The position numbers and the translations under genes were made by a program. This document shows positions 4,861-62,778 of a stretch of 64,000 bases of DNA, piece after piece. The stretch's first letter is position 1. Each line of letters starts with the position of its first letter. Below the pieces are notes generated by a model, which saw nothing but the letters and a program-made list of their open reading frames with translations, had not been told where the DNA came from and made no database searches. This stretch comes from an uncultured archaeon (lineage in GTDB: Archaea; Thermoplasmatota; Penumbrarchaeia; JASLWR01). The stretch spans positions 152,790 through 216,789 of the forward strand of contig CAYFHS010000002.1 in NCBI GenBank assembly GCA_964342815.1. The letters are read 5' to 3'.

Positions 4861-5142
4861 ACAGGGCACCTGTGGTAACAGTAGTAGGAAATTTTTTTAT
4901 TCTTTGTCGTCTTTGGAAAGTTTGAAAAGTATTCTGGTCGTATTTATTTCTTTCTTAACAAAAACATGAATCACCCATATTTTGGGTAAGAGATTAATTC
5001 CCCCGGGTCCGAATCGCAATGGAACTGATGGAATAATCAAGTGAATGTATGGATATACCCCGTGACTTGCCTTCTCACACGGCTGAATATCTACTTAATC
5101 GGGATGCGGTGGGAACGTTTCGGGAGCTACGACAACTTTCTT

Positions 5143-18898: not shown

Positions 18899-19250
18899 TA
18901 TTATTCCTACAAACAGTTATCATTTATAATTTTTGTCTTAATGTCGTATAACTAGCAAAATTGACCATTTTTGTAATATTCGAAAACCAACTGGACGTTC
19001 GATTATCATTTCTATTTATCCAACCCGCAGATAAAGATTGGCCGGTATTTTACCGACCTTGGAGACTACCGTCTCCTTTTGTAATCATTTTATTTTTTTG
19101 TCGGGCCTGCGTTTCTTGCGTCGCAGGCCCTTTAGGTAAACAAGTCGTCAATTGTCCCTATATGTCTGTTTTCAATTCGAAATAATAAACAATGTTTTTA
19201 ATCTGTTCTTCCGTTATACGTATCTCCCACAGCAGCCACCGGGTGCCAAA

Positions 19251-29008: not shown

Positions 29009-32000
29009 TCAGATCTTTTTGTTGCAGTTCGGACACATCCACCACCCCTTTTTTACCGGGGCGCTGCAGTGCTTGCAGGTGGGAGAATTTTTTTCGGGAC
29101 GTTTGTATCTGGACGGCGGTTTGAAGCTAAGATCCAGCCCTGGCTCTTCCAAGCACTCGTCCTGGCCTTCCGGTAAAATTACCTCTACACGACAGGGTCT
29201 CTCCTTCATCCTCTTCCTTCCTGCCTTTTCGTCATGATATACTCCGTCAGGTTTTCCGGATCCCGTTCTTTCTTCGGTTATTGGCTTCATCAACGGCGGA
29301 AGAACTTCTCCTGCTGCTTCTCCGACCTTTCTTCTTTTATCGGAAATTTTCCTCTCCTTAAGCGGCTTCATCAGGAGCAGTTTCTTTTCCCCGGATATGG
29401 GTTTCATAAGGTTTCTTTTCGATCTTGCAGTCTTCCCTGCTGCCGGAAGTGTGAAAAGATCATCGATTTCTTTTTTACCACTTGTACTCTCCTTCACGAC
29501 AGGCTCCAGCAAAGGCCAAAAATTCTCTTCCTCAGGGATTTTTGACTCGGTCTCTTCGTCGCTCCACTCCGCATCCAGCTCATATTCAGCCTCATATTCT
29601 CCTTCCATAGGTTGGTCGGAAATGTCCAGTTTAGGCAGGTCCGACAGGTCATCCACTTCATCTTCACCCACGTCATTGAAAAAATTAAGATCATCGGGAT
29701 CGTATGCAGGACCCATTTCCGTCTGGGATTGGAAGCCTGCCGGCTTCCTCTCGACATAAAGATCCTCATAACCGGAGTCCCGTTTCTTTTCTTTCTTGGT
29801 CCGCAGGCCCATTTCGTTGGCAAGATAATCGAAGGTCTCGTCACTATCCGTCTGACCTTTTTTACTTTTGCGTTTCTTGACTGCATCTTCCACATCGTCT
29901 CTTGTGAAAGCTTTCATAAGCCTCTTTCTATACCTTCTACGTTTTATGACCTTGACCACGATTATTAATGACAGCAATGCTATGACCACACCGCCCGTTA
30001 CCAACCAGACCCAGCTATCCACGCCTACCAGGAAACGTTTAAGCTTTGCGGGCACCCCCTGGTTCTCCTCTGTCTCTTCTTCGGGGTTCTCTCCGGGTCG
30101 TTTCCCGGGCTTTACGGGAACCTTGGTCCCCACATTCTTTGCCACTACCCTTAAACTATCTGATACCGCCGCACCGTTATCGTCCTCTATCCTGAGATGA
30201 ATATCATATTCACCGTCTTTTACAAACTCATGGGAGAGTATTTCATCGGTGGAATCAAGGTTGGTGAAGTCAGGCTTTGCATCCTTCTCGACGATTGACC
30301 ATCTATACCACATCCTCGCCAGATCACCCGGGGAATCGGTTATCTTTGGCTCCACCACAATAGAGCCGTTCTTTTCCAGTACCTGATCATCCCCCAGTTC
30401 CAGTGTGGGTGCAATATTCTTCACGAAGATGGAAAATGTGGCACCGGCCGCGTTGTCAGGTTCGTCGTCCGTAACCGTGAGTTGAATGATGAAGGCATTT
30501 TCACTGGAATAAAGAAAAGTATGACTTGCACTCTTCCCGAATGCCAGGGATCCCCCGTCCCCGAAATCCCAGGAGTAGTTCAACCCGTCAATATCACCGG
30601 GAACGTCAAAAGCATCACCTACGAAAGCTACTGATTCACCTTCCTCCACCTCGAAAGCTTCTCTCTGAACTTCACCCTTGTAAATGGCAGACAGGTTAAG
30701 ATCATAAGGCTGAGAGTTCTTAATATATATCATGGCCTGGACGATGTCGAAAACCCCATCGTTATCTTCCACAATGAGAGAAATATGGTAAGTACCATTG
30801 TTTTCATAGGGGAATTCCTCCAGTCCTCCCTTTATATCGTGATCGTTGTCCGGTATCCCGTCATGATCCTCATCGGTCTTGGTATCCAGATCCCAGTAGT
30901 ACTGCAGCGATGCCATATCCCCCGGTGTGTCCGTGGAATTCGTACCTATCAAAGGGATGATGTCTCCCTCGTAATATTCGTCCTGAAACTCGTTGATCAC
31001 TGCAGTGGGCCTCTTATTCTTGATCTCTATGTCCATGCTGTCCGTATCCCCAGCACCGTCGTTATCCTTTAAACGGATGGTGACAGTATAGTAACCCTGC
31101 TGAGAGTAGCTGTGGGTAGCTGTGGGGTCATCCTGCCATTCTGATTCCTCGCCGTCCCCGAAATCCCACTTGTACTCCAGCGTATCCAAGTCGTTTTCCG
31201 TATCAGAGGAGTCCGATGCATCGAATTCGATACTGTCATCCTCGTAGAGAGAGTCCAAATTCACATTGGAACCCAGGTTTACCACGGCATTTGGTTTGCG
31301 GTTCTTAACTACTATGGATCGCGTTATATTCGTCTGGTCTACGTCATCATCCCATACGATAAGCAGCACCGTGGTGGTCCCGCTTTCGAGGTATGTGTGG
31401 GATCCACTTGCCGAGGTTCCCGTTCCATCTGCCATCCTGTCATTATCCGGAATATGGTCGCCGCTCCAGACGTTGATACCGTCGTAAGGCATGTCGTTCT
31501 CCCCATCGAAATCCCAGTACCATTTAAGTGAGTCCAGGTCCGAGGCAGTATCGGAAAGGGCACCGCTGAACTCGATCGGAACTCCCTCATCCACGGGTCC
31601 GGATGTAACAATGTCGCCTGTGGGAGCAACGTTGTGAATCCTGACATAGCAGTACTCGGTCACCTTGAAATTGTCCACATCCGTAACCTCGAGTTTGACG
31701 GTCTTGAGGCCATTCCGGGGCTTTTCGCTTGGGTAACTGGTGGTAACAGTTCGCCCGGTGGCATCGTTATTGCCGTCATTGTCGAAATCCCAGACGAACG
31801 CGGATTCAGCCAGGTTCTTGTCATCGGTTGCCGTTGCAGAGAACTGGATCTGCTCGTCCTCGTCCGCATCGGGAACATGCCCCTGAATACCGTTGCCTCC
31901 CTTGACCATGATGGCTGTGATCTTGGGTGAATTGCCTATGAGATCGAGAGCGTCCTTGGCATCTATCATGCCGCATCCGCGCTCATTGTTTGGATTGTTC

Positions 32001-33403
32001 GCATTGGGTGCGCTCTCCCTCAGTGCATTTCGTATGTCTCCGGGGGACGTGTCCCCGTTTGCTTCTCTCAGTATGGCTGCCACTCCCGCAACGTGGGGAC
32101 ATGACATTGAGGTGCCCTGTGCACCAATGTAGTTCGTGGGATCGACTACGCCGTTTGTCCATCCGGATCCTCCCATGCTCGTTCCCGATGCCCTTGCCGC
32201 TTTTATGTACTCACCGGGGGCCAGCACATCGGGTTTCATGGCCCCGGTTGAAATTCCAGGTCCCCTGGATGAGAACGATGAAAGCTGACCATAGTCGTTA
32301 CTGGATCCCACCGTGACCACATGGGGAGCGTTCCCGGGTGAACCGATGCGCAGCCCCTCCTCCCCATCGTTCCCGGCTGCTGCACATACAACAATACCAT
32401 ATCCCACGGCATCGTTACAGGCACTGTTCATTGAATCACTGTGGACAGGGCTCCCCTGCTGGTTCACCGTCCCTATGGAAAGTGACATAACATGAACATT
32501 GTATGTATTGCGATTTGACACGACCCAGTTAACAGCTTCCACCACATAGCCATATGTGGAGGCACCCAATACCCTGGCGATCAACAGATCCGCATTGTAT
32601 GCCACGCCTCTGTATCTACCGCCCGATGCCCCGCCGGCAGGAGGATTTCCCGCTGCAATGGATGCGCAGTGAGTACCGTGTCCGTCATCATCATAGGGAC
32701 TCCGAACTTGAGGGGGCCAGCTGGTATAATCCTTGAAAGCCAGTATTTTTCCTCCCTGAAAAGCCTCATGGTTGCCATCGATACCAGTATCCAGCACTGC
32801 AATCGTGGTTCCTTGGCCTGAAAAACCTGCAGAATACACGTCGGACATGCTAATGGCGTTGCCGGAACTGTCCAAAAGAGTTCTAAGTCTTGGTATTGCA
32901 CAGATCTCTGCCACATCCGGAATCGTGGCCACATCGTTCAGAATTCCAACCGGCAGCCTGACGTGTATTTGGTCAATATATTCCGACACCTGCATTATCT
33001 CTGCGCCGGTTTGTTGGAGCGATGAAATGTCGAAGAGAGAATCATCGGTGGAAAGAAGAACCATGCATTCAACGAGGTCTCCCGGCGCTTGATCTCTGAC
33101 CTCTTCCTCGAGAATATCCTCTATGCGGTTGCGATCTACGTCACCGGGGTTGAAACCGCCGTTCTTGTATTCGTTAACATGACCCTTTACAGTATAACCA
33201 AAAAGTTCTTGATGTGCCTGCGTATTTTCATCGAGTGGGGCGGACAAAAGGGAGTTGTAGGGAGATAGAACCGTTCCGCTTTGATCCGTGTAACTAATCT
33301 TAAAAGTACCCGGTTCGGAAATTGCAATCCCCATGAGGGGCATTGCCGACAATAGGACAATAATAAAAATTGTGAAAGTATGAACCGACATTTTATTCGA
33401 CAA
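29009..33403 (-). CDS. membrane-anchored extracellular subtilisin-like (S8) serine protease with ~6 PKD domains and C-terminal Zn ribbon
   Basis: Catalytic triad VLDTGID, GHGTHCAS, GTSMSCPHVAG; propeptide; WDFGDG PKD repeats; TM; CKHC...CPNC. Confidence 0.93.
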   Translation of the reverse strand: MSNKMSVHTFTIFIIVLLSAMPLMGIAISEPGTFKISYTDQSGTVLSPYNSLLSAPLDENTQAHQELFGYTVKGHVNEYKNGGFNPGDVDRNRIEDILEEEVRDQAPGDLVECMVLLSTDDSLFDISSLQQTGAEIMQVSEYIDQIHVRLPVGILNDVATIPDVAEICAIPRLRTLLDSSGNAISMSDVYSAGFSGQGTTIAVLDTGIDGNHEAFQGGKILAFKDYTSWPPQVRSPYDDDGHGTHCASIAAGNPPAGGASGGRYRGVAYNADLLIARVLGASTYGYVVEAVNWVVSNRNTYNVHVMSLSIGTVNQQGSPVHSDSMNSACNDAVGYGIVVCAAAGNDGEEGLRIGSPGNAPHVVTVGSSNDYGQLSSFSSRGPGISTGAMKPDVLAPGEYIKAARASGTSMGGSGWTNGVVDPTNYIGAQGTSMSCPHVAGVAAILREANGDTSPGDIRNALRESAPNANNPNNERGCGMIDAKDALDLIGNSPKITAIMVKGGNGIQGHVPDADEDEQIQFSATATDDKNLAESAFVWDFDNDGNNDATGRTVTTSYPSEKPRNGLKTVKLEVTDVDNFKVTEYCYVRIHNVAPTGDIVTSGPVDEGVPIEFSGALSDTASDLDSLKWYWDFDGENDMPYDGINVWSGDHIPDNDRMADGTGTSASGSHTYLESGTTTVLLIVWDDDVDQTNITRSIVVKNRKPNAVVNLGSNVNLDSLYEDDSIEFDASDSSDTENDLDTLEYKWDFGDGEESEWQDDPTATHSYSQQGYYTVTIRLKDNDGAGDTDSMDIEIKNKRPTAVINEFQDEYYEGDIIPLIGTNSTDTPGDMASLQYYWDLDTKTDEDHDGIPDNDHDIKGGLEEFPYENNGTYHISLIVEDNDGVFDIVQAMIYIKNSQPYDLNLSAIYKGEVQREAFEVEEGESVAFVGDAFDVPGDIDGLNYSWDFGDGGSLAFGKSASHTFLYSSENAFIIQLTVTDDEPDNAAGATFSIFVKNIAPTLELGDDQVLEKNGSIVVEPKITDSPGDLARMWYRWSIVEKDAKPDFTNLDSTDEILSHEFVKDGEYDIHLRIEDDNGAAVSDSLRVVAKNVGTKVPVKPGKRPGENPEEETEENQGVPAKLKRFLVGVDSWVWLVTGGVVIALLSLIIVVKVIKRRRYRKRLMKAFTRDDVEDAVKKRKSKKGQTDSDETFDYLANEMGLRTKKEKKRDSGYEDLYVERKPAGFQSQTEMGPAYDPDDLNFFNDVGEDEVDDLSDLPKLDISDQPMEGEYEAEYELDAEWSDEETESKIPEEENFWPLLEPVVKESTSGKKEIDDLFTLPAAGKTARSKRNLMKPISGEKKLLLMKPLKERKISDKRRKVGEAAGEVLPPLMKPITEERTGSGKPDGVYHDEKAGRKRMKERPCRVEVILPEGQDECLEEPGLDLSFKPPSRYKRPEKNSPTCKHCSAPVKKGWWMCPNCNKKI

Positions 33404-33469: not shown

Positions 33470-34507
33470 TTATATCTTACCACTATTTCTCAGACTAACG
33501 TCCCCCGAACTTACCATGATGGTTTTTCCTTCCCCCACCTCGAGGATCAGACGCCCGTGGTCATCAATACCTCGGGATATTCCCCTCGTCTGCTGCCTTG
33601 GCCCGCTTACGGAAACCTCCTTTCCGGAAAGAAAATCTCTAAGCCGGATCCGTGCGACGATATTCTGGAACCCATCCTGGAAAAAGGTCTGGTAAGCCGT
33701 TTCCAGGGCTTCCAACAGCCCTGTAAAGATATCGATGCGTGAGAACTTTTTCCCCGCAAGCATCTTCAATGAAGCCGCTGCCGCAAGTCCTTTACCGAAA
33801 AAATGATCCTTTTCGATGTTAACGTTGATCCCTATACCGACTATAACCCAGTTCACCCTGTCCATATCGCCATCCATCCAGGTCAGTATCCCGCATATTT
33901 TTTTGTCATTCATCATTATATCGTTGGGCCATTTTATCAATGCAGGGATGCCGGAGATATTTTCAAGATAGCTGGCAATGGCTTCTCCCATGACCAAGGT
34001 AATCCTGCTTACTGCCTGAGTTGCTATATCCGGGCGCAGGAAAAGGGACATGTATATTCCCCCAACTGGCGATTCCCAGATACGCTGCAGTCGGCCCTTA
34101 CCCTGATTCTGTATCTCCGCCAGAACAACGCTTCCCGTTTCCAGCTCTGAAGCCATGGTTTTTGCCATGACATTGGTGGAAGCAGCCTCCGTGTAATAAT
34201 GATAATCCCTTCCAAAATGATCAGTTCTTAATTTATTTTCTATCAGCGGCGGCAGTAACAGGTCCGGTGTTCCGGTCAGACGGTGGCCCCTGGAGGGAAC
34301 CGAGATTATCTGAAAACCCATATCTCTGAGAACTCGAACCGACTTTCCCACGGCAGCCCTCGACAGGCCCAATCGGGCACCTATCATTTGACCTGAAACG
34401 AAGGATTTGGAATTATCATTATCCAGAAGCTCTCGCAGAACGTCCATGGTTGTACCGGTCACGGCACCGGTAGTCGCACTCTTATCATCCTTCATTCTGC
34501 AAAACAC
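33470..34507 (-). CDS. birA: bifunctional biotin-[acetyl-CoA-carboxylase] ligase with N-terminal HTH
   Basis: VSGQMIGARLGLSRAAVGK, ASTN, QNQGKGR, KWPNDI, KICGIL, GIGIN. Confidence 0.95.
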   Translation of the reverse strand: MFCRMKDDKSATTGAVTGTTMDVLRELLDNDNSKSFVSGQMIGARLGLSRAAVGKSVRVLRDMGFQIISVPSRGHRLTGTPDLLLPPLIENKLRTDHFGRDYHYYTEAASTNVMAKTMASELETGSVVLAEIQNQGKGRLQRIWESPVGGIYMSLFLRPDIATQAVSRITLVMGEAIASYLENISGIPALIKWPNDIMMNDKKICGILTWMDGDMDRVNWVIVGIGINVNIEKDHFFGKGLAAAASLKMLAGKKFSRIDIFTGLLEALETAYQTFFQDGFQNIVARIRLRDFLSGKEVSVSGPRQQTRGISRGIDDHGRLILEVGEGKTIMVSSGDVSLRNSGKI

Positions 34508-34570: not shown

Positions 34571-35338
34571 TCATTCGTCGATCCATTTCGGCGGTCTTTT
34601 TTCTAGAAATGCTTCCAGACCTTCGTTTGCGTCCTTTGTGATCATTAGTTCCTTTAGATAGATATCCTCGATCTTTTTCATAGCCGCATGGTAATTGTTC
34701 ATTGTTCCTTCCAAGAATGCCTTCTTCGTCAATCTGAGCACAACCGCACTGTTACAGGCCAGTTTTCCCGTGATGAACCTTTCAGCATCTTCCTCGAAGG
34801 TATCGAATGAGAATATATGATTTACCAGACCCAGCTCACGGGCCTCATCCGCTTTTATGATCTCTCCCGTCAGAAGCAGCTCCAGCGCCTTCTTATGGTG
34901 CATGAGTTTCGGAAATACCGCGGCGGCCACCGGCGGAAAGACACCTACCTTTATCTCCGGCTGCCCGAACTTTGCCCTGTCCGAGGCAAGAACCAGATCG
35001 CAGAACGCAGCCACCTCGCATCCGCCCCCAAGGGCAGCGCCTTTGACCAACGCCACTATAGGTGCGTCTATGTTGTTCATATTGTGAAAAATATCGTGAA
35101 AGACTTGGATCATCTCTTCAGCTTTGCCTCCCATATGATCGGATACGTCCACACCTGCCGAGAATGCCTTTCCCCTGGCATCCAGCACCAGTATCTTGAG
35201 CTTCCGCCCCTGGAAAGACTTCAACGCGTCGTTTATCTCCTGCATCATTTCGATGTTCAAAATATTTACGGGAGGCCTGTTGAAGGTGATCCTCCCTACA
35301 AGGTCATGCTCATCCACTATGATAGTTTTGTATTCCAT
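34571..35338 (-). CDS. dch: cyclohexa-1,5-diene-1-carbonyl-CoA hydratase (crotonase family, BamR/Dch type)
   Basis: NRPPVNILNI, KAFSAGVDVSDH, ALGGGCE, FGQPEIKVGVFPP. Adjacency to had and oah supports the specificity. Confidence 0.8.
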   Translation of the reverse strand: MEYKTIIVDEHDLVGRITFNRPPVNILNIEMMQEINDALKSFQGRKLKILVLDARGKAFSAGVDVSDHMGGKAEEMIQVFHDIFHNMNNIDAPIVALVKGAALGGGCEVAAFCDLVLASDRAKFGQPEIKVGVFPPVAAAVFPKLMHHKKALELLLTGEIIKADEARELGLVNHIFSFDTFEEDAERFITGKLACNSAVVLRLTKKAFLEGTMNNYHAAMKKIEDIYLKELMITKDANEGLEAFLEKRPPKWIDE

Positions 35339-35457
35339 TTTATCTTGCTCCTTTCAAGACCCGGATATCTCTTGATAACCACCATTGGATTAAGTCAAAT
35401 CGTTCCTGCCATAGTTCTTTTTTCAGGTATCCCATGGTAGCTTTGGGATAAGGGAAT

Positions 35458-36585
35458 TCATGCGAAATCGGGTGTCAAAACGATTCTTCTCACCAGTTTT
35501 CCGGATTTCGCGTCCTCGAAAGCTTCCTTTATGCCGCTCATAGGTCTTGTCTCAACGAATGGTTTGATCTTTATGGTTCCGTCCAATACCCATTTCAATA
35601 CGTTATCGTAGTATTTCGGGAGACATCCCCAGGTACCGATGATATCAGCATCGAAAGCCATCAAGCGCGATATGCTGTACTGATTCTTCTGCATGCCGAA
35701 TCCTACCACGATTAATTTTCCGATGAAAGACAGCAATGCCAGCGCCATTTCCTGTCCTGCTTTGGTCCCCGTAACCTCGAATATCTTCCATCCATAGCTG
35801 GATGGCAGACCGTTCTGCTTGCAGATTCCTTTGAATTCGTTCTTCACGGCAAAGGCGTCCTTGTCGATGGAGTTGATTACGAAATCCGCCCCGTAATTCA
35901 GGGCGCGTTCGAGCTTTTCCCTGCTGATGTCGATCCCGATGACGGAATTAGCTCCAAATGCCTTGGCCATCTGCGTGACATAAACCCCCACACCCCCTCC
36001 CGTCCCGATTACAATCACGTTGTCTCCAATCCCGAGATCCCCCCTTACGCACGCCTGATAAGGCGTGGTGACCGCATCGGCTATGACTGCCAGTTCCTCT
36101 AGATCAAAACCATCTCGTCCCTCCACGAAACAGAGGTCCTTCACAGGTACCGGAATGTGGCTGGAGTATCCTCCGTAAATCCCAATGCTGTTCCCCGGCA
36201 TTTTCTGGCCAAGGCACCGGTTACCCCTGCCTGCTTCGCATATGGGGCAGTCGTTACACGGCAAAACCGCGGGAATTATTACCTCCCTTCCGATGAATCT
36301 TCCCTCTCCTGCAACGATAACGCCCGATATCTCATGTCCAAGTGTCAAGGGTGGGCCGGTTATCGTGGGGACGCCGTGATAGTAATAGCCCAGGTCGGTG
36401 TGGCAAACACCGCATCCTGCTACTTTCACGAGAACTTCGCCTTCTGATAATTCTGGTACCTGGATCTCCGTGAGCTCGATCAGTCCCTCCGTAATCTTTC
36501 CTGTTTCTCTATCTTTTTTCCAGGGTCGGACCATCTGCCATGTCTTTATCATTTCGGGTAGATCCATCTTTTCCTCTCCTGTCAT
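35458..36585 (-). CDS. had: 6-hydroxycyclohex-1-ene-1-carbonyl-CoA dehydrogenase (Zn-dependent, BamQ/Had type)
   Basis: GCGVCHTD, LTLGHEISG, VIIPAVLPC..C..C...RC..QKMPGN, ADAVTTPYQA, RLMAFDA...GTWGC. Probable ATG at 36567. Confidence 0.9.
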   Translation of the reverse strand: MTGEEKMDLPEMIKTWQMVRPWKKDRETGKITEGLIELTEIQVPELSEGEVLVKVAGCGVCHTDLGYYYHGVPTITGPPLTLGHEISGVIVAGEGRFIGREVIIPAVLPCNDCPICEAGRGNRCLGQKMPGNSIGIYGGYSSHIPVPVKDLCFVEGRDGFDLEELAVIADAVTTPYQACVRGDLGIGDNVIVIGTGGGVGVYVTQMAKAFGANSVIGIDISREKLERALNYGADFVINSIDKDAFAVKNEFKGICKQNGLPSSYGWKIFEVTGTKAGQEMALALLSFIGKLIVVGFGMQKNQYSISRLMAFDADIIGTWGCLPKYYDNVLKWVLDGTIKIKPFVETRPMSGIKEAFEDAKSGKLVRRIVLTPDFA

Positions 36586-36792
36586 TCCGAATCCATACCA
36601 CTGTGGTTGTGCGAATCGTGCAAGTGCATGATTATATCGATATTTAATATTATTGTAACAAGTGCATTCACGGCATTGGAGGGACCCATATCAATACCAC
36701 GAAAAGTATCATATATTATTAATCCGATAAGGTCGAATCCAACGGATCGAGGCGTCATAATCAATCAAACAATCAGATAATGGAGGGAAAAA
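36586..36792. promoter_or_regulatory. divergent promoter region had/oah with 9-bp direct repeat
   Basis: AT-rich TATA-like tracts; CAAGTGCAT at 36621-36629 and 36659-36667; atatcgatat palindrome between them. Confidence 0.45.
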
Positions 36793-37935
36793 ATGACATT
36801 AAATTGGTTACCGAGAGAAGATGAGATAAAGAATCATGAGTTGTTCAAGGGAGACGAATATTTCGGAACGGAAGCTCCCTGTACGATGTATGAAAAGAAA
36901 CCTGTACTGGATCCGAAGGGAAATGAAGTGGAAGGACTTTATTCCGCATGGATAACGCTGAATAATCCCCGTCAGTACAATTCGTATACCACCGAGATGG
37001 TGAAGGGAGTTATCGCAGGATTCCACAACGCATCGGTGGACCGGACCGTGGTAGCCGTGGTCTTCACCGGCGCAGGCGACAGGGCGTTCTGTACAGGTGG
37101 CAACACCAAGGAATATGCTGAATACTATTCCAAGCGCTGCAACGAGTACGGGGAGTACATGGAACTGTTCAACCACATGGTGGATGCCATACTCTTCTGT
37201 AAAAAACCGGTTATATGCAGGGTGAACGGTATGAGGATCGCGGGAGGTCAGGAGATTGGTATGGCCGCAGACCTTGCAGTCAGTTCCGATCTTGCGATCT
37301 TCGGGCAGGCCGGACCCAAGCACGGCAGCGCCCCTGACGGGGGCTCCAGCGATTTCCTGCCCTGGTATCTGGGGATCGAGGACGCAATGTGGAACTGCAT
37401 AAGCTGCGAGATGTGGTCCTCTTACAAGATGAAGAGACTCGGTTTCATATCAAAGGCGGTCCCGGTGATCAAGGAAGGGGACAAGTGGATCAGGAATCCC
37501 CAGGTGATCACAGATAAATATGTGGATGACGGCGAGATAGTATACGGCGAGTTCAAGACCGGAGACGAGTTCAAGGAAGCGAGAAAATACGTTTGGAACG
37601 CCAAGACCGACTTCGAGCTTCTGGACAAGGCGGTTAACGATATCATCTGGCGGTTCACGAACCTGTTCCCCGGCTGTCTCATCAAGACCATCGACAGCAT
37701 TAGAGCCAAGAAAAAGTTCTTCTGGGATTACTCCAAGAACTACAACAGGCACTGGCTGGCGGCGAATATGGCCGGAGAGGCATTCCTTGGATTCCATGCC
37801 TTCAACACGAAGAAGATCACAGGCAAGGACACCATCGATTTCATCAAATACCGCCAGCTGATAGCTGAGGGAGCATACCAGGACGACGACTTGTTCGAGG
37901 CCGTTCTGGGAAAGCCGCTGCCGAAAGATGAATAA
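36793..37935 (+). CDS. oah: 6-oxocyclohex-1-ene-1-carbonyl-CoA hydrolase (ring-opening, BamA/Oah)
   Basis: WITLNNPRQYNSYTTEMVKGVI, FCTGGNTKEYAEYY, VNGMRIAGGQEIG, GQAGPKHGSAPDGG: highly characteristic of BamA/Oah. Confidence 0.95.
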   Translation: MTLNWLPREDEIKNHELFKGDEYFGTEAPCTMYEKKPVLDPKGNEVEGLYSAWITLNNPRQYNSYTTEMVKGVIAGFHNASVDRTVVAVVFTGAGDRAFCTGGNTKEYAEYYSKRCNEYGEYMELFNHMVDAILFCKKPVICRVNGMRIAGGQEIGMAADLAVSSDLAIFGQAGPKHGSAPDGGSSDFLPWYLGIEDAMWNCISCEMWSSYKMKRLGFISKAVPVIKEGDKWIRNPQVITDKYVDDGEIVYGEFKTGDEFKEARKYVWNAKTDFELLDKAVNDIIWRFTNLFPGCLIKTIDSIRAKKKFFWDYSKNYNRHWLAANMAGEAFLGFHAFNTKKITGKDTIDFIKYRQLIAEGAYQDDDLFEAVLGKPLPKDE

Positions 37936-38017
37936 ACCGCTTTTTAATGTTTCGCGGGGATGCGTTCAAACACTCCCCGTTTATTCTATTATTAATGGTA
38001 CGAAGTCAGGGTACTAC

Positions 38018-38422
38018 ATGAAAACCTTCATCACACGAACCCGCGCAAGATACGCTGAGACCGATACCGCGGAGGTTTTGTACTACGGTAGCTATTTTTT
38101 ATACTTCGAGGTGGGTCGGATCGAGATGTTCCGCGAGCTGAATCTGCCTTACAGAAGGGACATTCCCATTGTGGATACTTACTGCAAGTATCTGAGACCG
38201 GGCTATTTCGACGACCTTCTTGAAATTCATACGAAATTCGACGATATCACGGAAAAGGGATTCAAGATAAGGTCCTTTGTTCATCGCGTAACAGATGACG
38301 GAACTCTAGAACAAATTGCAGAAGGGTACGTCACAATGGTATACGTTAACGAGGACCGGAAGGTGAGCCCGCTGCCGGATTATTTCGTGGAAGTTTTCGA
38401 GAAGATCGGGGCGGAGGAGTAG
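38018..38422 (+). CDS. acyl-CoA thioesterase, YbgC/4-hydroxybenzoyl-CoA thioesterase hot-dog family
   Basis: RYAETD..VLYY..YF.YFEVGR. Probable ATG at 38018 (track 37928). Confidence 0.85.
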   Translation: MKTFITRTRARYAETDTAEVLYYGSYFLYFEVGRIEMFRELNLPYRRDIPIVDTYCKYLRPGYFDDLLEIHTKFDDITEKGFKIRSFVHRVTDDGTLEQIAEGYVTMVYVNEDRKVSPLPDYFVEVFEKIGAEE

Positions 38423-42332: not shown

Positions 42333-45300
42333 TCATACCGGTGGCGGAGGCGGCATGGCAGAGGTAGAGGTCGGAGTTGCGGGGGCGGGTTTTGGTGCAG
42401 CAGGAGGAGACTGTGCCGGAGGTGACTGTGCAGGAGGTACCGCCGTCCCGGGGGCCGCTCCTGGGATGGGTCTCGGAACGGATCCCGGGATAGGTCCCGG
42501 AACGGGTCCCGGTGCTTTTGGCTGATATTTGCCCTGCGGTGGTGCGGTGGGTGCCGGTTTGTAAAGCCTCTCGCCGGGTACGCTGGGTGTTGGAGTGGGT
42601 TTCTGGTACGGATGCGCGGACGGCACGCTGGTGGTCTGGATCTCGTATTTCCCGTCCACGAACTGGAAATCGATTATGTCCGCCTCATCATCCTTTCCAT
42701 TCTTCGAAGCTCCCTCTGTCTCGGTATGTCCCACCACCTGCTTCGTGTTCATGTCGATCACCACCGAGTACTGCGGTAATGCAAGCCGCTTCTTCTGCTC
42801 CGGCAGTTTCTTCGCAGAAGTTTGACCCGAAGGTAGCTGAGCAACATCCTTCTTCTTGAACAGCTCACTTGCGTCGGGCATGATCCTTTTGGCGACCACG
42901 CCTCCCTTCATCACCGGACTGTAGGTGATCTCGGCCATGTCTTTCCTCTCACTTTCCCTATCCAGCAGCTCCGGCGGTATCCTGTTCTTTATCCGTTTCA
43001 CTACCATAATGATGATAATCATCAGGATAATCAGTGCAACCAAGGCGATTGCGCCGTAGAAAATTAATGGTTCGTCCTCTATTAACTTCTCCAGTGAGGA
43101 ACGTTCATCGATCATTTCTTTATCCACCACTTTGATGGAAAGCGCCTGCTCGGTCTCGGAAAAGAATGTCGGTATCTTCGAGGTGCACACGGCCCTGATA
43201 ATGTGTTCTCCCGATATGGAGGAACCCGCCGGAACGAATATTTCCAGGGGAAGTATGACCTCATTCTCCGGGAGCATTCTGAAGGAACCGATTAACGGGG
43301 ATACGTATTCAAGAAGTTCATCATCCGCTATGATATTGATGGTGACATTATCCTCGATGGTTCCTCGGTTGATGATACGCAGGTTGAATGTGTACACCGT
43401 TCCCTTCTCCACGGTTATGTTCGCAATCTGCGCGTCGAAAGATATCTCCGTAATATACACGATGATCTCCAGCGTCTGATAGGCTACCGGTGAAAAGCTC
43501 TCACCGTCGAAGGCCTTGATCTGAATATAGTAAATTAAATTCGGTGCCAGCTCTTTACTAAACTGAAATCTCGTATGGTTCTGTACCGGGTACCAGGATA
43601 CGATCTCGCCGTGACCCTTGGACAAACCTATCTGGATGAAATACACTATCATATCATCCCTGCCCTCGGGGTCCGTTGCAGGGTCCCAATGAATGGTGGG
43701 CGTCAAATTAGTGGTCATACTGGGTAATATGTTTGTCACCTGGGACGGCGGCATGTTGCCCTTTTCTGTTATTTCCAGAACCGCTTCGAAAACTATGGAA
43801 AATAATTCACCATCGAAGGCCTTGATCTGGACGTAATATTTACCAATGACAAGTTCTTCCTTTGGTCGGTAGCTGTTCACCGCGATCCCATCCACCCATG
43901 GCAGTACGTCACCCGCCCCGCTTCTGCTTCCGATCTGTATCGAATATGTTATGTTGTCGTTGTTGATGTCGTAGGCCCCGACCCAGCTAATGTTCGTGGT
44001 CGTCTCCCATGTCTTGGTGGGGTACATTTCCGTGGGTGGTGACGGTGGTGCGTTGGCATCTCCTATTATATGAAGAAGTTCCTGTTGTATGTATGAGAAG
44101 GAATACCCGTCAGAAACACGGACCTGCACGTAATAGGTACCGAGGGGCAGCTCATTCTGGATCTGATACTGCGAGGATGGCCCAACATCGACCCATGGTA
44201 GTATGTCATCGCTGTATGGATAGCTTCCGATCTGGAGGTAGTTGCCAATTACCGAATCGCCATCCCCGTCCACCGCTCCGGACCAGCTTATCAACGGCAG
44301 CGTTTCCATGGTAAAGTCCGGAAGGATCGTATTTGGTGGTGATGGTGGAAGGTTTGCAAGCACGAAGATATCTAAGGTCTGAACCAAGGGCGTGGAGTTA
44401 TCCAATCCGTCCGTGGCCAAAACCTCGACGAAATAAGTATCGTACGGCAGTGGTGTTTCTACCTGATAGAAAGGATTTTTTCCTATCCATTGCCGCCGTA
44501 CCACATCCCCACTTCCCTCCACGGTCCCGATCATTATATAGTATTCCAGATCATAGCTTTCTGTTATAGTATCGGTGGCACCATACCAGTGTATAAAGGG
44601 GGCAGTTTCCCGTGTCTCGTCCGGCAGCAGGGTGTCCGGTGGAGACGGAGGTATGTTGAAGTACAGCTCGAACAGCTCCGAGTTTTCCGAGAAGGGCACA
44701 GATGACGCTGCCCCGAACTTATCATCTATCTTTACTTCGACGTCATAGGTTCCTGTCTCGAAGCTGCTATTCACTCCAAAGGTAATATTTGTTAGGTATT
44801 CGTTGTTATCCAGCAGTGATGAAGTGATCTTGGCCAACTCCTTGACACCAGATGAAAATACCAGGAATGTTTCATCCGAGGGGTTCCTTATGGACAGTTC
44901 GTAGGTGAATGAACTCAAGGTGTGAAGGTCCGGATCGCTGAACCTTACCGATAAGGTCATTTCCGGCTCATTATAGGTGTTCAGGCGAGTGGGTGAAATG
45001 CTCACTTCGAGTATCTGTGGGTCTATGTTGAAAAAGGTTGAAAAAACCTCGGGATTATCAGCGTAATCGGAAACGAATATTGGCTCAGCTCCGTCGTGGA
45101 TGGTTATCCTGACGTCGAATTCGTCATCCGGCAAGGAGTTAAATTCGTCATACCTGTACGATACCATGAAAGAATTGTTTGTAAGATTGATGATCTGGAA
45201 AGCGGATCTACTGGCAGCCGGGTAAATAGTCCGAAGGGTGCCGTTGGAGCTTCTCAAACTTATGTTGACATCCACGTTCCTGAGTTCGTAATCGCCGGAA

Positions 45301-46826
45301 ATATTTTCCATAACGGTGTAATTGATGAAGACAGGTTTTTCCAGATGGCGGTTGCAGCGTTCCGGTTCAACGGAAACACCGACGATCTCGGCCCTGTACA
45401 GCTCGAATGCATCGAGCCGGTCCTCGAAGCTCGAGCTGTTTTGACCACCCAGCCCGTCGTTCACCTCGATCAAAAGATCGTAAAAGGACGGAGGATAAGC
45501 ATCATCTGGCTTCCATATATACTGGAAATCGTATGAATGATTCGTTTTTTTGTTTATTGATAATCCCGGTTCGCCGTTTTCCGCATTGGTCGCCAGATCA
45601 TAGACTATATTGTTCTCATCTCTTATGCGGATGCTGAGATTGAAATCGGAATCGCTCTGAACGTCCAGGTCCTGGAATGTACCTGAGAAAGTTATGGTTG
45701 ATCCTCCGAGTTTGTTAAGCCGCAATTTGTTGTTCTTCATGCTGTTCACATTTATTCCGGGGTAATGGTTGCGCAGCTCAACTGCATTCTCAAGTGATTG
45801 ATATCCAGTCCCTCCCGGCAGCCCGTCCGGATCGAATAATAAAATTTTTAGATCCACGAAACCGAATCCGTAGACCCGTCCGGGATCAAAAAACAGTGTT
45901 GCGTTATAAAAACCGGCGAGAATGCGCTCCATTGAGAACTTGGTATTCTTGATTGAAATGTTGTCTACGTATCTTAACAGCGATGCGTTATCGCTTAACC
46001 GCACGTCAACTGTCATTGTGAAATTGTCCACACTGTGATCATCGGGATCGCTCACAGACAGGTTTATGGCTGCCGTGTCATCCGAAAGAGGATAGATTAT
46101 GGGGTTGCTCACGTTTACGCTGTCTTTAATGTAACGGGGCCGGAAATTCGCCTTTACAGTAATATTATCGATTATTATCATATCCCCGTGGGGATTGTCA
46201 CGACCTCCCGAGCTCCAGTAAAAATACCCGCGAAATTGTATTCGGAGGTTGCTGATCTTTGGGAACGCCGAGAGATCGTAGGAGGCATGTATGAAATCGT
46301 TGGGGCCAGTGGATGAATCGCCATTATCCAGGGTCTGTGGTGTTTTCCACATGGGGTTGGTATAACCGTTATTAGTGATCCCATCCGCGTCTATATCGAT
46401 ATACAAATGTTCATAGTTCTCTATATCTTCGTAAGCGTAATAGAAATCAAGCACGACGTCCTCGGTATTAGTTAGATCCAGGGTCGTGACTATCACTGCC
46501 GTATCGTAGTTGTTACCCCCATCTCCCCTCATGAAAACGCTGTGGCCGTCATACGCAAAAGTGTTGCCGTCGAAATTCGTACGGACCTCAAGCAATCCCC
46601 TGTTCCTCCAGGGGGTGAAAGCGCCCCATCCGTTCTCGAAATCTTCGAAAAAAATGATTTTTTCGGCACCTCGGGTAGCGCTTGATGGATTATCGGCAGG
46701 GTTAAGCTGAGGATTGGTACGTGTTTCCGTACTCATATTATTGGAAAATAGGTGCAGCGACGAACTTATCAATGCCACTGTTATCATGCAAATGATCATC
46801 TTATTCTTGCTAATCATAAAGCTCAC
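42333..46826 (-). CDS. large surface protein: N-terminal jelly-roll (MAM-like) domain, ~4 Ig-like and 4 FnIII-like repeats, TM, Pro-rich tail
   Basis: Signal peptide; FFEDFENG...LDLT...IQFRG...IIDNITV; four N.PPSPP..(L)P..T.ET...I.W..A.D repeats; TM; PAQSPP/PAPA tail. Confidence 0.82.
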   Translation of the reverse strand: MSFMISKNKMIICMITVALISSSLHLFSNNMSTETRTNPQLNPADNPSSATRGAEKIIFFEDFENGWGAFTPWRNRGLLEVRTNFDGNTFAYDGHSVFMRGDGGNNYDTAVIVTTLDLTNTEDVVLDFYYAYEDIENYEHLYIDIDADGITNNGYTNPMWKTPQTLDNGDSSTGPNDFIHASYDLSAFPKISNLRIQFRGYFYWSSGGRDNPHGDMIIIDNITVKANFRPRYIKDSVNVSNPIIYPLSDDTAAINLSVSDPDDHSVDNFTMTVDVRLSDNASLLRYVDNISIKNTKFSMERILAGFYNATLFFDPGRVYGFGFVDLKILLFDPDGLPGGTGYQSLENAVELRNHYPGINVNSMKNNKLRLNKLGGSTITFSGTFQDLDVQSDSDFNLSIRIRDENNIVYDLATNAENGEPGLSINKKTNHSYDFQYIWKPDDAYPPSFYDLLIEVNDGLGGQNSSSFEDRLDAFELYRAEIVGVSVEPERCNRHLEKPVFINYTVMENISGDYELRNVDVNISLRSSNGTLRTIYPAASRSAFQIINLTNNSFMVSYRYDEFNSLPDDEFDVRITIHDGAEPIFVSDYADNPEVFSTFFNIDPQILEVSISPTRLNTYNEPEMTLSVRFSDPDLHTLSSFTYELSIRNPSDETFLVFSSGVKELAKITSSLLDNNEYLTNITFGVNSSFETGTYDVEVKIDDKFGAASSVPFSENSELFELYFNIPPSPPDTLLPDETRETAPFIHWYGATDTITESYDLEYYIMIGTVEGSGDVVRRQWIGKNPFYQVETPLPYDTYFVEVLATDGLDNSTPLVQTLDIFVLANLPPSPPNTILPDFTMETLPLISWSGAVDGDGDSVIGNYLQIGSYPYSDDILPWVDVGPSSQYQIQNELPLGTYYVQVRVSDGYSFSYIQQELLHIIGDANAPPSPPTEMYPTKTWETTTNISWVGAYDINNDNITYSIQIGSRSGAGDVLPWVDGIAVNSYRPKEELVIGKYYVQIKAFDGELFSIVFEAVLEITEKGNMPPSQVTNILPSMTTNLTPTIHWDPATDPEGRDDMIVYFIQIGLSKGHGEIVSWYPVQNHTRFQFSKELAPNLIYYIQIKAFDGESFSPVAYQTLEIIVYITEISFDAQIANITVEKGTVYTFNLRIINRGTIEDNVTINIIADDELLEYVSPLIGSFRMLPENEVILPLEIFVPAGSSISGEHIIRAVCTSKIPTFFSETEQALSIKVVDKEMIDERSSLEKLIEDEPLIFYGAIALVALIILMIIIIMVVKRIKNRIPPELLDRESERKDMAEITYSPVMKGGVVAKRIMPDASELFKKKDVAQLPSGQTSAKKLPEQKKRLALPQYSVVIDMNTKQVVGHTETEGASKNGKDDEADIIDFQFVDGKYEIQTTSVPSAHPYQKPTPTPSVPGERLYKPAPTAPPQGKYQPKAPGPVPGPIPGSVPRPIPGAAPGTAVPPAQSPPAQSPPAAPKPAPATPTSTSAMPPPPPV

Positions 46827-48375: not shown

Positions 48376-50934
48376 TCACTCCAGCAATCCCTTTTTCCTT
48401 TCGACATAATTATATATTTTCAACCAGGCCACCATTGCATGCTGGTTATAGTCTATTCTGATTTCGTGGTCCGCAACGCCACCGGGCACGCCTCCGAAAC
48501 ATCTTCTTGGTGACGGAAGAAATTGAGAATCCGATTCGTTGAGCGCGAGCATCACCAGGAAGTCCGATGCCAGTATAATCCTTGTCTTGTAGAACTCCTT
48601 ATCACCGGACAGATTATACCTCTCCATCATCCAGTAAAAGTCCATTGGTCCCTCTATCTTCGACGCCGTGTTCGCCCTGGGATAGTAGTCAGGTTCGCCG
48701 TCAGGGTCATTTTGATATCTGAGGTAGCGATCGTAATAGAAACCTCCCACATATTCCGGTATCTCGAAACCCTCAGGATACTGGTCCTGACCGTAGAGAA
48801 CGCTTTCCGCCATTGAGCGGGACATGTTCACATATCTAACGTCCGGTTCGAACTCATACATGATGAGCGCCGCGCCGGTGGCCCATGGACTGAACGGCGA
48901 GTAGTATGAGTTATCCCTCCCGTAATAATCATAATAATAGTCGAAGGCCAGCTTCCAGCAGTCCATGTATTTTTCCTCGCGTGTATGCTGGTAGAGGAAC
49001 GCCAGCGCCAGGAAAGCCTCTCCAGGATAGTAATCCGTGTGTTTCCAGTAGTATTTGTCCCCTTCCTCCGGTATACTGCCGTCCACCTGATAGTAGTTGT
49101 TGAATTCCCCGGTGCCGTTGTCCTGTGAGAATATAAAAAAGTTCCCTAGAGCGTCCAGTGTGTCACCGTAGCGGTCATCGAGCACCTTCTCAAAGGTCAC
49201 GTAGCAGAGCACTGCCAGTGCCGCCCCTCCCAATTTCGAATCACCCTCGTCAACGATGTGGGCCGTATTCTGGTCAATGTACTCGACGTGTTTTCCCACG
49301 TATTCCATGGCAAGTTCCCCGGCGTCGAGAAATATCTTCTCGGGGTAGTTGCGGTAAAGAAGAAGGACCGAGTAGGTGGTTCCCATCTGGCGGAGCATGT
49401 TATCGCTTGACGAATAGGAAAGCTGCCTTGGATCGTACTGGTAATTAAAACTTCCGTCGGGCCGCTGGCCGTTCACCAGATAAAGTCCTGCCGCCACCGA
49501 AGCCTCGAGATAGGGTGAGTCCCGGGGTTCTTTCATATCCTCCATTGCGAACCATTTCCTGCCGTGCACGCGCTCTTCACCCTTTATCTCAGTAAGCAGA
49601 TCTTCTTTTAGTACGACATAGTCGTGCATCTTTATCCAGGCTACAATGGCATGCTGATTGTAATCGATTCTCACGTCACTGTCGCTCACACCGCCCGGGA
49701 CGCCTCCATAAGCTTTTTTTGGGTCCGAAAGCGATGCAGCATCCGACGCGTTATACTGTAGAGTCGCAAGGAATTCAGACGCCAGCACCATTCTTTCACG
49801 GTAGAATTTTTTATTACCCGACAGATCATACCTCTCCATCATCCAGTAAAAATCCATGGGCCCCTCTATCTTCGACGCCGTGTTCGCCCTGGGATAGTAG
49901 TCAGCTTCGCCGTCGGGGTCATTTTGATATCTAATGTAGCGATCGTAATAGAAACCTCTCACGTATTCCGGTATCTCGAAATCCTCCGGATACTGGTCCT
50001 GCCCGTACAGCACCCGATCCGCCATTGAGCGGGACATTTCGACGTATCTCTCATCCTGCTGAAACTCATACATTATCAGTGCAGCGCCGGTGGCCCAGGG
50101 GCTGAATGGAGAATAATACGAGTTCTTCCCACCGTAGTAGTCGTAATAATATTCGAATGCCAGGTCCCAGCAGTCCTTGTATTTTTCCTCCCGTGTGTGC
50201 TGATACAGGAACGCCAGGGCCAGGAAAGCCTCTCCGGGGTAGTAATCCGTATGTTTCCAGTAGTATTTTTCCCCCTCTGCCGGTATCTTCCCGTCCACTT
50301 GATAGTAGTTATTGAACTCCCCGGTGGCATTGTTCTGAGAGAATATTATGAAATTTCCCAGGGCGTCCAAGGTATCTCTATAACGCGTACCGGCAACCTT
50401 TTCGAAGGTCACGTAGCAGAGCACTGCCAGTGCCGCCCCTCCCAGTTTCGAGGTACCGCCGCTGACGATATGGGCCGTTTCCGGGTCGATATACTCCACG
50501 TACCGCTCAACGTATTCCATGGCAAGCTGGCCTGTCTCAAGAAAGATTGGCTCCGGATAGTGTTTGTAGATCAAAAGAACGGAATAGGTTGTGCCCAGCT
50601 GCCGAAGCATGTTGTCGTCTGTGGAATAACTGTCACCTTTGGGATCGTAATTGTAGTTGAAGCTTCCGTCCGAGCGCTGGCAGTTCACAAGGTACAGCCC
50701 GCCCATCACTGCGGATTCGAGGTAGGATGATTCGATTTCCAAATTCATGTCGTCCAGTGTGAACCAGTCCCTTCCCGGCACACGATCCAGTGCTTCTTCG
50801 TAAAAGTAAAGATAGACTGCGAGACCCGATAACACAAGAAGAGCCGTCACGCAGAATGCAAGTATGATCTTGTGGACGCGGAGGCTCTCGTTCAAGGCTG
50901 TCACATCCTGTGTTATTGATTCATTTAATCCCAC
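48376..50934 (-). CDS. membrane-anchored protein with tandemly duplicated ~400-aa helical (alpha/alpha toroid-like) domain
   Basis: N-terminal TM; two near-identical units (QR.DGSFNY.YDP, NMLRQ.GTTYSVLL, KLGGAALA, YYPGEAFLALA, RIDYNQHA) about 1212 nt apart. Confidence 0.75.
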   Translation of the reverse strand: MGLNESITQDVTALNESLRVHKIILAFCVTALLVLSGLAVYLYFYEEALDRVPGRDWFTLDDMNLEIESSYLESAVMGGLYLVNCQRSDGSFNYNYDPKGDSYSTDDNMLRQLGTTYSVLLIYKHYPEPIFLETGQLAMEYVERYVEYIDPETAHIVSGGTSKLGGAALAVLCYVTFEKVAGTRYRDTLDALGNFIIFSQNNATGEFNNYYQVDGKIPAEGEKYYWKHTDYYPGEAFLALAFLYQHTREEKYKDCWDLAFEYYYDYYGGKNSYYSPFSPWATGAALIMYEFQQDERYVEMSRSMADRVLYGQDQYPEDFEIPEYVRGFYYDRYIRYQNDPDGEADYYPRANTASKIEGPMDFYWMMERYDLSGNKKFYRERMVLASEFLATLQYNASDAASLSDPKKAYGGVPGGVSDSDVRIDYNQHAIVAWIKMHDYVVLKEDLLTEIKGEERVHGRKWFAMEDMKEPRDSPYLEASVAAGLYLVNGQRPDGSFNYQYDPRQLSYSSSDNMLRQMGTTYSVLLLYRNYPEKIFLDAGELAMEYVGKHVEYIDQNTAHIVDEGDSKLGGAALAVLCYVTFEKVLDDRYGDTLDALGNFFIFSQDNGTGEFNNYYQVDGSIPEEGDKYYWKHTDYYPGEAFLALAFLYQHTREEKYMDCWKLAFDYYYDYYGRDNSYYSPFSPWATGAALIMYEFEPDVRYVNMSRSMAESVLYGQDQYPEGFEIPEYVGGFYYDRYLRYQNDPDGEPDYYPRANTASKIEGPMDFYWMMERYNLSGDKEFYKTRIILASDFLVMLALNESDSQFLPSPRRCFGGVPGGVADHEIRIDYNQHAMVAWLKIYNYVERKKGLLE

Positions 50935-58706: not shown

Positions 58707-58998
58707 TTGGCCACGACCTTGTATAACGGACAGTAAAATTAACCAGTATATATCGCTGTTATGCCCAAAATAAGTTTTGGTCCAGGTAATTCCCGTAAAT
58801 AATATGAATGTTAATCCGATTTTTTTCAGTTGTGCGGGGCAATAACACAACTTATACATAGTTAATCCACACTCGGCACGACTAAGTACATACCGTGGGT
58901 GAAGTTGCTTCAATGCCCGATGGGTATTCCTACCAAAACGTTCTTCAGTGCTGAATGATAGCCATTATTGGAATTAATTTACACAGGAAGTTGGAAAT

Positions 58999-62515: not shown

Positions 62516-62778
62516 CGAAACCAATCCAATATTTTTATTGAATATCCCGTCATCTTCAGCAGAATCCGAGTTAAAATTACTATTTATATTCTACTAGTGA
62601 ATTAATGTGACTTGTGTACCTTAGAACAATTTGATCCTTTTCAGAGGAAAGAACGGAGGGCCAGTAAAATCCGTTGGAAATATTCTAGAAAATGGCATCC
62701 CCTGCCGATATCAGCGTCATGCTGGCGGCTGGGCGTAGACGGCATTTATCTTAATTAAATCTTTTCTTTCAATAATGA

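Follow-up and report, generated by a model that had tools for sequence, protein, structure and literature searches.

A predicted benzoyl-CoA ring-processing gene cluster in an uncultured marine archaeon of the phylum Thermoplasmatota

Introduction

Does an archaeon outside the Archaeoglobi possess the bacterial-type anaerobic pathway that reduces and opens the aromatic ring of benzoyl-coenzyme A (CoA), or do its ring-opening genes serve another purpose? The question is raised by a small gene cluster in a 64,000-nucleotide stretch of DNA, hereafter the window, which comprises bases 152790-216789 of the 342-kb contig C2 (CAYFHS010000002.1) in the metagenome-assembled genome (MAG) GCA_964342815.1. 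The cluster contains the genes for Had and Oah (BamA/BzdY) and a gene for a probable dienoyl-CoA hydratase, Dch. We estimate at roughly 0.8 the probability that, in an uncultured marine archaeon of the Thermoplasmatota, this cluster forms the ring-processing part of the anaerobic benzoyl-CoA pathway. This reading draws on observed gene identities and gene order, on partner genes in the same genome and on co-occurrence in relatives. The pathway itself is established from Thauera, Azoarcus, Geobacter, Syntrophus and Ferroglobus placidus (PMC1924859, PMC5742626, PMC6500515).

Results

The ring-opening genes

In the open reading frame (ORF) map, the positions and the divergent arrangement of the three ring-opening genes are exactly those of the original prediction. 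The had gene (35458-36585, minus strand) is followed on the same strand by a gene for a crotonase of 255 amino acids (34571-35338), and oah (36793-37935, plus strand, 380 amino acids) is transcribed in the opposite direction across a 207-bp spacer (36586-36792) with the putative divergent promoters. The ring-opening observation is confirmed with two corrections. The prediction had identified all three enzymes; this stands for had and oah, which pass the curated cut-offs of NCBIfam equivalog models, whereas the threshold of the Dch hidden Markov model gives dch no support. The second correction is a fourth gene that had been overlooked and belongs to the unit. It encodes a hotdog-fold 4HBT/YbgC-like acyl-CoA thioesterase of 164 amino acids (37928-38422, plus strand; Pfam 4HBT_2 and 4HBT), and it shares 8 nt with the end of oah, including the stop codon.

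Had scores 464 bits with TIGR03201 (cut-off 338.65), and its gene is the only one of this type in the genome. The motifs GCGVCHTD, GHE, CNDCPICEAGRGNRC and GTGGGVG correspond to the Zn- and NAD-binding sites, including the four-Cys structural-zinc loop. Oah, encoded by a single-copy gene, scores 566.5 bits with TIGR03200 (cut-off 464.45) over model positions 1-360, the full length of the model. It is a long crotonase extended at its C-terminus, in which the runner-up models BadI (102.8 bits) and MenB (92-95 bits) match residues 52-233 only. Oah shares 96% identity with its counterpart in a MAG of the same genus and 73-81% with bacterial BamA; read directly from the sequence, its second crotonase glutamate is replaced in a MenB/BadI-like manner. 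None of the 14 control genomes has a protein above the TIGR03200 or TIGR03201 cut-off. A search of the PDB returned no solved Oah or Dch structure and matched only MenB and generic crotonases.

For the identity of the crotonase, we compared the window proteins with 80 loci encoding Oah relatives. The best NCBIfam model for the crotonase is the Dch model TIGR03189, with which it scores 179.9 bits (cut-off 292.5), and generic enoyl-CoA hydratase models trail it by just 14-18 bits. Because the cut-off is missed, the name dch leans on synteny and orthology. The order had-oah-crotonase recurs in many loci of Desulfobacteraceae, Thermodesulfobacteriota and Syntrophus, and the crotonase found there is 50-55% identical to that of the window. 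Crotonases adjoining had and oah in Thermoplasmatota loci are 65-86% identical to it; unlinked crotonases in the compared loci reach about 30%, and the second-best crotonase of the same genome (contig C5) 32%.

In Syntrophus aciditrophicus the gene order is bamQ (SYN_01655), bamA (SYN_01654), bamR (SYN_01653) (PMC8942843), and PMC5742626 credits the characterisation of this organism's hydratase to Peters et al. 2007. We judged orthology against the bamR-position gene of an uncultured Syntrophus sp. locus, standing in for the characterised SYN_01653. Its product is 53% identical to the window crotonase and also remains below the TIGR03189 cut-off, at 184.2 bits; therefore, missing the cut-off does not exclude a BamR-type dienoyl-CoA hydratase. 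The threshold seems to be tuned to the Thauera/Azoarcus type. The window protein retains the motifs GGGCE and GQPE, and with them both crotonase glutamates (sequence read directly). We conclude that it is a probable BamR-type Dch and not a member of TIGR03189.

Reductase and ligase genes elsewhere in the genome

The bzd cluster of Azoarcus/Aromatoleum comprises BzdNOPQ, the ferredoxin BzdM, BzdV, and BzdW, BzdX, BzdY and BzdA, which are Dch, Had, Oah and the ligase, respectively. The original prediction noted that the window is without a benzoyl-CoA reductase; indeed, all matches of the genome to reductase models sit on other contigs. The genome as a whole is not devoid of one, as contig C31 carries bzdN-O-(P)-Q. 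Three of the four products pass their equivalog cut-offs: BzdN (467.6 bits, cut-off 453.8), BzdO (543.4 bits, cut-off 448.6) and BzdQ (425.6 bits, cut-off 380.2). The gene between bzdO and bzdQ encodes an activase-type ATPase that matches an activase domain model only (TIGR00241, 203.5 bits), so that its identity as BzdP is taken from its position.

All genes of the C31 cluster are in one direction. Downstream of the bzd genes are a 96-amino-acid ferredoxin (Pfam Fer4) with two CxxCxxCxxxCP-type motifs and then an oxidoreductase of 853 amino acids, which combines HoxU/NuoG-like Fe-S domains with a GltD-like NAD(P)H flavoprotein. Judged by its gene content, the cluster is arranged as one would expect for a class I reductase of the bzd type accompanied by its ferredoxin and by an enzyme that regenerates the latter. 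A 153-amino-acid GNAT acetyltransferase is encoded directly upstream of bzdN (C31, 8803-9264).

Contig C33 contains an intact ORF of 516 amino acids for a member of the benzoate-CoA ligase family (TIGR02262, 651 bits, cut-off 375.25); TIGR02262 is a subfamily-level model, and benzoate is the putative substrate. Two of the searches suggested in the original prediction, for a class I reductase and for a benzoate-CoA ligase, thus returned a gene.

Other candidates for a ring reductase were rejected. No class II BamB was found in this 89%-complete genome: its single AOR-family gene matches the Pyrococcus furiosus AOR at 199.9 bits and BamB (4z3w) at 86 bits, the latter in the N-terminal domain only. 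An HGD-D/activase gene on contig C18 (3601-5874, minus strand) encodes a double-cubane-cluster reductase-activase fusion of 757 amino acids (NF040772, 353.8 bits, cut-off 350); the next gene is a free activase. The HGD-D gene on contig C7 is HadB-like, of the 2-hydroxyacyl-CoA dehydratase type. It lies in an island (C7:80033-91748) with an HcrA-like molybdenum hydroxylase, an aryl-CoA-ligase-like gene (TIGR02262, 227 bits) and a divergent activase. The HcrA-like enzyme scores 897.8 bits against a 4-hydroxybenzoyl-CoA reductase cut-off of 994.55. Judging by gene content, aromatic or 2-hydroxy acids may be fed in through this island, with the HcrA-like enzyme as a lead.

Co-occurrence in relatives

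In the class to which the genome belongs, represented by 37 species, Oah exceeds its cut-off in five species, Had in six (with one additional weak match) and BzdO in six (with one additional fragment at a contig end). The carriers of oah, had and bzdO are the same genomes, and they come from four families. The largest family of the class has none of the three in any of its 24 species. In our sample of the phylum, 17 of 401 genomes, from several families, encode Oah. On two single-contig Thermoplasmatota chromosomes bzdO lies 5-7 kb from oah, and on CP070751.1 one of two bzdO copies is about 10 kb from the second copy of oah. This co-occurrence and the shared closed chromosomes indicate that the pathway is a trait that recurs patchily among Thermoplasmatota rather than an artefact of binning.

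CP070751.1 (Thermoplasmata archaeon bin33) is a closed chromosome of 5.16 Mb with two oah genes from different Oah clades, whose products are 87% and 73% identical to the window Oah, in addition to its two bzdO genes. In the second of these clades, the partners of oah are a Dch-like crotonase and a distinct Zn-dehydrogenase whose identity to Had is only 25-30%.

The host and the nativeness of the segment

The assembly comprises 4.35 Mb in 116 contigs, with 88.9% completeness and 3.2% contamination. An archaeal small subunit (SSU) rRNA gene is on contig C9 (1513 bits), and the window has genes for FttA/aCPSF1, an archaeal termination factor (60602-62524), for a TrmB regulator and for a geranylgeranyl-reductase-like protein. 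A genome of the same genus, Thermoplasmatota archaeon isolate ETNP2_MAG_1, also carries oah. The runs in which the window sequence occurs come from eight studies and are metagenomes of marine or seawater origin. The host is thus a Thermoplasmatota archaeon of marine waters, in agreement with the earlier view of a non-Archaeoglobi archaeon.

The neighbourhood is repeated in ETNP2_MAG_1 on a 171-kb contig, where the order birA-dch-had/oah-thioesterase is kept and protein identities are 96% for Oah, 87% for Had, 86% for Dch, 85% for the thioesterase and 75% for BirA. Tetranucleotide composition correlates with the rest of the genome at 0.98-0.99 for C2, C31, C33 and the 16S contig C9. The 3.85-kb cluster compared with the rest of C2 gives a correlation of 0.829, and the median of random segments of the same size is 0.836. 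Contigs identical to the window, from independent seawater metagenomes, span the dch/had and oah/thioesterase junctions.

Origin of oah

A maximum likelihood tree of 81 Oah sequences, built by a quick IQ-TREE search (LG+C20) and unrooted as to direction, places the window Oah in a 12-row clade supported at 96% by SH-aLRT (approximate likelihood ratio test). Every labelled row of this clade is archaeal, either Thermoplasmatota or 'Methanobacteriota archaeon'. Its sister is a Dehalococcoidales sequence, which at 81% identity is the nearest non-archaeal Oah and comes from a had-oah-thioesterase locus. A second Thermoplasmatota clade is beside KSB1, in a group with LCP-89 and Ignavibacteriota, and a Bathyarchaeota clade adjoins Thermodesulfobacteriota. 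A single archaeal Oah clade is rejected by the approximately unbiased test (delta log-likelihood 89, p = 0.003), with the group set by taxonomy after inspection of the tree.

The bamA phylogeny proposed earlier as a test for transfer shows the archaeal clade nested among bacteria, and this nesting points to old, repeated inter-domain transfer. The best BzdO matches parallel the Oah pattern at the level of protein identity, with 87% to 'Thermoplasmata archaeon' followed by 74-79% to Myxococcota and Desulfobacterota MAG proteins. The pattern in the tree and the matches fits several old transfers between domains followed by vertical descent and loss.

The thioesterase gene, the divergent spacer and birA

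The thioesterase matches TIGR00051 at 50.2 bits, under the cut-off of 68.7. Homologues with 49-85% identity follow oah in the sister locus from Dehalococcoidales and in six loci belonging to the archaeal Oah clade, and the oah/thioesterase junction is spanned by an independent seawater contig. The overlap of the two genes indicates translational coupling of the thioesterase to oah, and the archaeal clade conserves the pair. As a guess from the gene context, the enzyme probably hydrolyses a thioester of the pathway, either for CoA recycling or proofreading or to release a product acid.

The spacer between had and oah contains two copies of CAAGTGCAT (36621 and 36659), which bracket the palindrome ATATCGATAT and TAATATTA. 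It is 85% identical to its counterpart in the same-genus MAG; the core formed by CAAGTGCAT, ATATCGATAT and TAATATTA is nearly unchanged there, and the flanks have diverged. A GGAGGG sequence is located 6 nt ahead of the oah ATG. We regard the spacer core as a candidate for an operator or for the TATA region of the two divergently oriented promoters. An operator common to the bzd promoter and the had/oah spacer was also considered and rejected, as just two AT-rich 9-mers are shared, about the level of chance.

Directly downstream of dch is a bifunctional-type birA (33470-34507, minus strand) with a helix-turn-helix domain and a biotin ligase domain. The same-genus MAG shares this adjacency; the other 79 loci compared lack it. 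The idea that birA signals a glutaconyl-CoA decarboxylase dependent on biotin was tried and rejected: the adjacency is confined to the genus, and OAD_beta, the beta subunit of the Na+-pumping biotin decarboxylase, was not found in the genome, which is 89% complete. With no OAD_beta found, a biotin-dependent link to the lower pathway is unsupported.

Other genes of the window

Some 30 kb from the cluster are the genes for a methylmalonyl-CoA mutase large subunit (1675-3303, minus strand) and for a Bcd/AcrC-like acyl-CoA dehydrogenase with sub-threshold scores (3694-4869, minus strand). Four very large ORFs are on the minus strand: 2663 amino acids (5931-13922), 2662 amino acids (50925-58913), 1497 amino acids without a Pfam match (42333-46826), and 1464 amino acids encoding an S8 subtilase with PKD repeats (29009-33403). 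A serpin (22791-24086) and a 949-amino-acid WD40 protein (14026-16875) are encoded near large ORFs. Two overlapping tandem genes on the plus strand (19152-20954 and 20945-22687; 600 and 580 amino acids) each encode a spermidine-synthase domain that is preceded by a long N-terminal region.

Discussion

Proposed pathway

From the genes described above we infer the enzyme activities, electron donor, lower pathway, thioesterase substrate and physiological substrate of the following scheme. Benzoate would be activated to benzoyl-CoA by the ligase encoded on C33. The BzdNOPQ reductase from C31 would then convert benzoyl-CoA to cyclohexa-1,5-diene-1-carbonyl-CoA in a ferredoxin-dependent reaction at the expense of 2 ATP, with electrons supplied by the 2x[4Fe-4S] ferredoxin and the NAD(P)H/Fe-S oxidoreductase encoded directly downstream. 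Dch could hydrate the dienoyl-CoA to 6-hydroxycyclohexenoyl-CoA, and Had could oxidize it with NAD+ to 6-oxocyclohexenoyl-CoA. Oah is predicted to hydrate the 6-oxo compound and hydrolyse its ring, yielding 3-hydroxypimeloyl-CoA, which generic beta-oxidation enzymes would degrade to acetyl-CoA. The co-transcribed thioesterase may free CoA from some thioester of the pathway. That this lineage dearomatises benzoyl-CoA, as originally proposed, agrees with the presence of a bzd-type class I reductase and a ligase in the same genome and with the evidence against an insert.

Several observations weigh against this reading. The pathway is known here from genes alone, and the crotonase misses the Dch cut-off. 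The reductase, ligase and ring-opening genes are on three contigs (C31, C33 and C2) of a MAG that is 89% complete and 3.2% contaminated; with three separate contigs, we infer, rather than see, their physical linkage in this organism. A glutaryl-CoA dehydrogenase was not recognized, as all six acyl-CoA dehydrogenase hits score below the NF045552 (GlutCoADH) cut-off of 470 (best 336.5), in a search that did not include the decarboxylating GcdH model. The four of these enzymes that were scanned against NCBIfam are Bcd/AcrC-like, with scores higher there than on NF045552 and below every cut-off. For strict anaerobes, a class I reductase that consumes ATP is energetically expensive, a puzzle that has been discussed for such MAGs (PMC6472368). 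One marine metatranscriptome contains six short contigs that are at least 99% identical to the window, on dch and oah. These are a weak hint of expression, too few for a claim; they are short Logan contigs and possibly DNA carry-over, and gaps in Logan coverage cannot be interpreted as lack of expression.

Alternative explanations

The enzymes Dch, Had and Oah are common to the benzoate and cyclohexane-carboxylate routes in Geobacter and Syntrophus. Hence the module could serve the catabolism of alicyclic acids, with cyclohexanecarboxyl-CoA dehydrogenated twice to the dienoyl-CoA and then processed by Dch-Had-Oah, and not operate downstream of ring reduction. The several acyl-CoA dehydrogenases of the genome would suit such a route. 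However, none of the four that were scanned comes close to a cut-off for cyclohexanecarboxyl-CoA dehydrogenase: on NF043006 (cut-off 650) their scores are 267-360 bits, and on TIGR03207 (cut-off 575) about 199-233 bits. Moreover, the complete bzd cluster and the benzoate-CoA ligase are present in the genome and co-vary with had and oah in relatives. The cyclohexane-carboxylate alternative named in the original prediction therefore gains no specific support from these scores, and we consider it quite improbable. Context for the shared use of the three enzymes is given in PMC9795900. A different role would involve substituted ring-CoA substrates, for example dienoyl-CoAs derived from methyl- or hydroxy-benzoyl-CoA, or the supply of pimeloyl-type C7 units with release by the thioesterase, possibly linked to biotin via birA. 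The coupling of the thioesterase to oah, the position of birA after dch in this genus and the near-cut-off score of the HcrA-like enzyme are compatible with it. Against this, Had, Oah and BzdN, BzdO and BzdQ pass equivalog cut-offs of the unsubstituted pathway, the birA adjacency does not extend beyond the genus, and the genome yielded no OAD_beta. Such a role appears improbable to us.

The earlier concern that the segment could be mis-assembled was extended to the reductase contig: either might be bacterial DNA assembled or binned into an archaeal MAG. The Oah family is mostly bacterial, the Dehalococcoidales protein is close to the window Oah, and the MAG has some contamination. Nevertheless, composition, synteny and co-occurrence in relatives all speak against it: the 342-kb contig also has the FttA/aCPSF1, TrmB and geranylgeranyl-reductase-like genes, the cluster is typical of its contig, the neighbourhood is repeated in an independent MAG of the same genus, Oah belongs to a well-supported archaeal clade, and oah and bzdO occur together on closed Thermoplasmatota chromosomes. 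Given the composition, the same-genus synteny and the archaeal genes on the contig, a bacterial insert or chimera is very unlikely, and we assign it a negligible probability. A ring-processing module of the benzoyl-CoA pathway remains our preferred explanation.

Comparison with known systems

The predicted reaction sequence is the same as in the Azoarcus/Aromatoleum bzd and Thauera aromatica Bcr-Dch-Had-Oah systems. The bzd-type N, O and Q subunits pass their equivalog cut-offs here, Had and Oah pass models built on the enzymes of these bacteria, and ferredoxin and oxidoreductase genes likewise adjoin the reductase. Unlike in Azoarcus and Thauera, the genes are dispersed over three contigs rather than united in one operon, oah is coupled to a thioesterase gene, the organism is an archaeon and the hydratase belongs to another type than the Thauera/Azoarcus Dch. 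The individual ring-opening proteins resemble those of the bamQ-bamA-bamR loci of S. aciditrophicus and Desulfobacteraceae, with identities of 50-55% for the hydratase, 64-67% for Had and 73-76% for Oah and a similar sub-threshold TIGR03189 score, but here had-dch is divergent from oah-thioesterase. Moreover, Syntrophus and Desulfobacteraceae use the ATP-independent class II reductase BamB-I, whereas BamB was not found in this genome. Among archaea, F. placidus combines an ATP-dependent class I reductase with a bacterial-type downstream pathway, according to PMC6500515, which cites Schmid et al. 2015/2016. F. placidus is a cultured hyperthermophilic member of Archaeoglobi with measured enzyme activities; the present organism is an uncultured marine member of Thermoplasmatota known from genes alone.

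The Bcr-Dch-Had-Oah set in Thermoplasmata MAGs is already published (PMC6472368, PMC9239135). Dong et al. 2019 described class I bcr together with oah, dch and had in 'Thermoplasmata and Bathyarchaeota' MAGs and considered why strict anaerobes might afford an ATP-dependent enzyme (PMC6472368), and bcrABCD was reported in 'Ca. Yaplasmales' (PMC9239135). Hermodarchaeota are reported to have the full Bcr-Dch-Had-Oah set, with BzdV, ferredoxin and an NADP-dependent oxidoreductase beside bcr, a layout comparable to that on C31 (PMC8163825). These gene sets are similar to ours in the prediction made and in the type of evidence, and the first two are from the same phylum. Our lineage differs from them in belonging to a small class, of which the reference set has 37 species, and to an order of four with genomes of 3.1-4.4 Mb, and in its origin from marine waters or seawater and not from sediment. 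What is new is therefore modest: a further lineage (a small class with large genomes, from marine water), a BamR-type hydratase and a thioesterase in the operon.

Implications

The picture drawn from sediment MAGs is unchanged by this result, which is a genomic prediction. We speculate, with considerable doubt, that large-genome Thermoplasmatota of anoxic marine waters could be overlooked anaerobic benzoate-type degraders with an ATP-dependent class I reductase and a lineage-specific oah-thioesterase operon, and that the thioesterase could be a new outlet or control point, by release of C7 dicarboxylate or recycling of CoA, absent from the bacterial pathways described. More firmly, the cluster is a well-supported added case of the bacterial-type anaerobic benzoyl-CoA pathway, comprising ligase, class I reductase and ring-opening module, being established in Thermoplasmatota. 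The archaeal bamA genes form clades of their own, and therefore surveys of bamA that assign all reads to bacteria may miscount the degraders.

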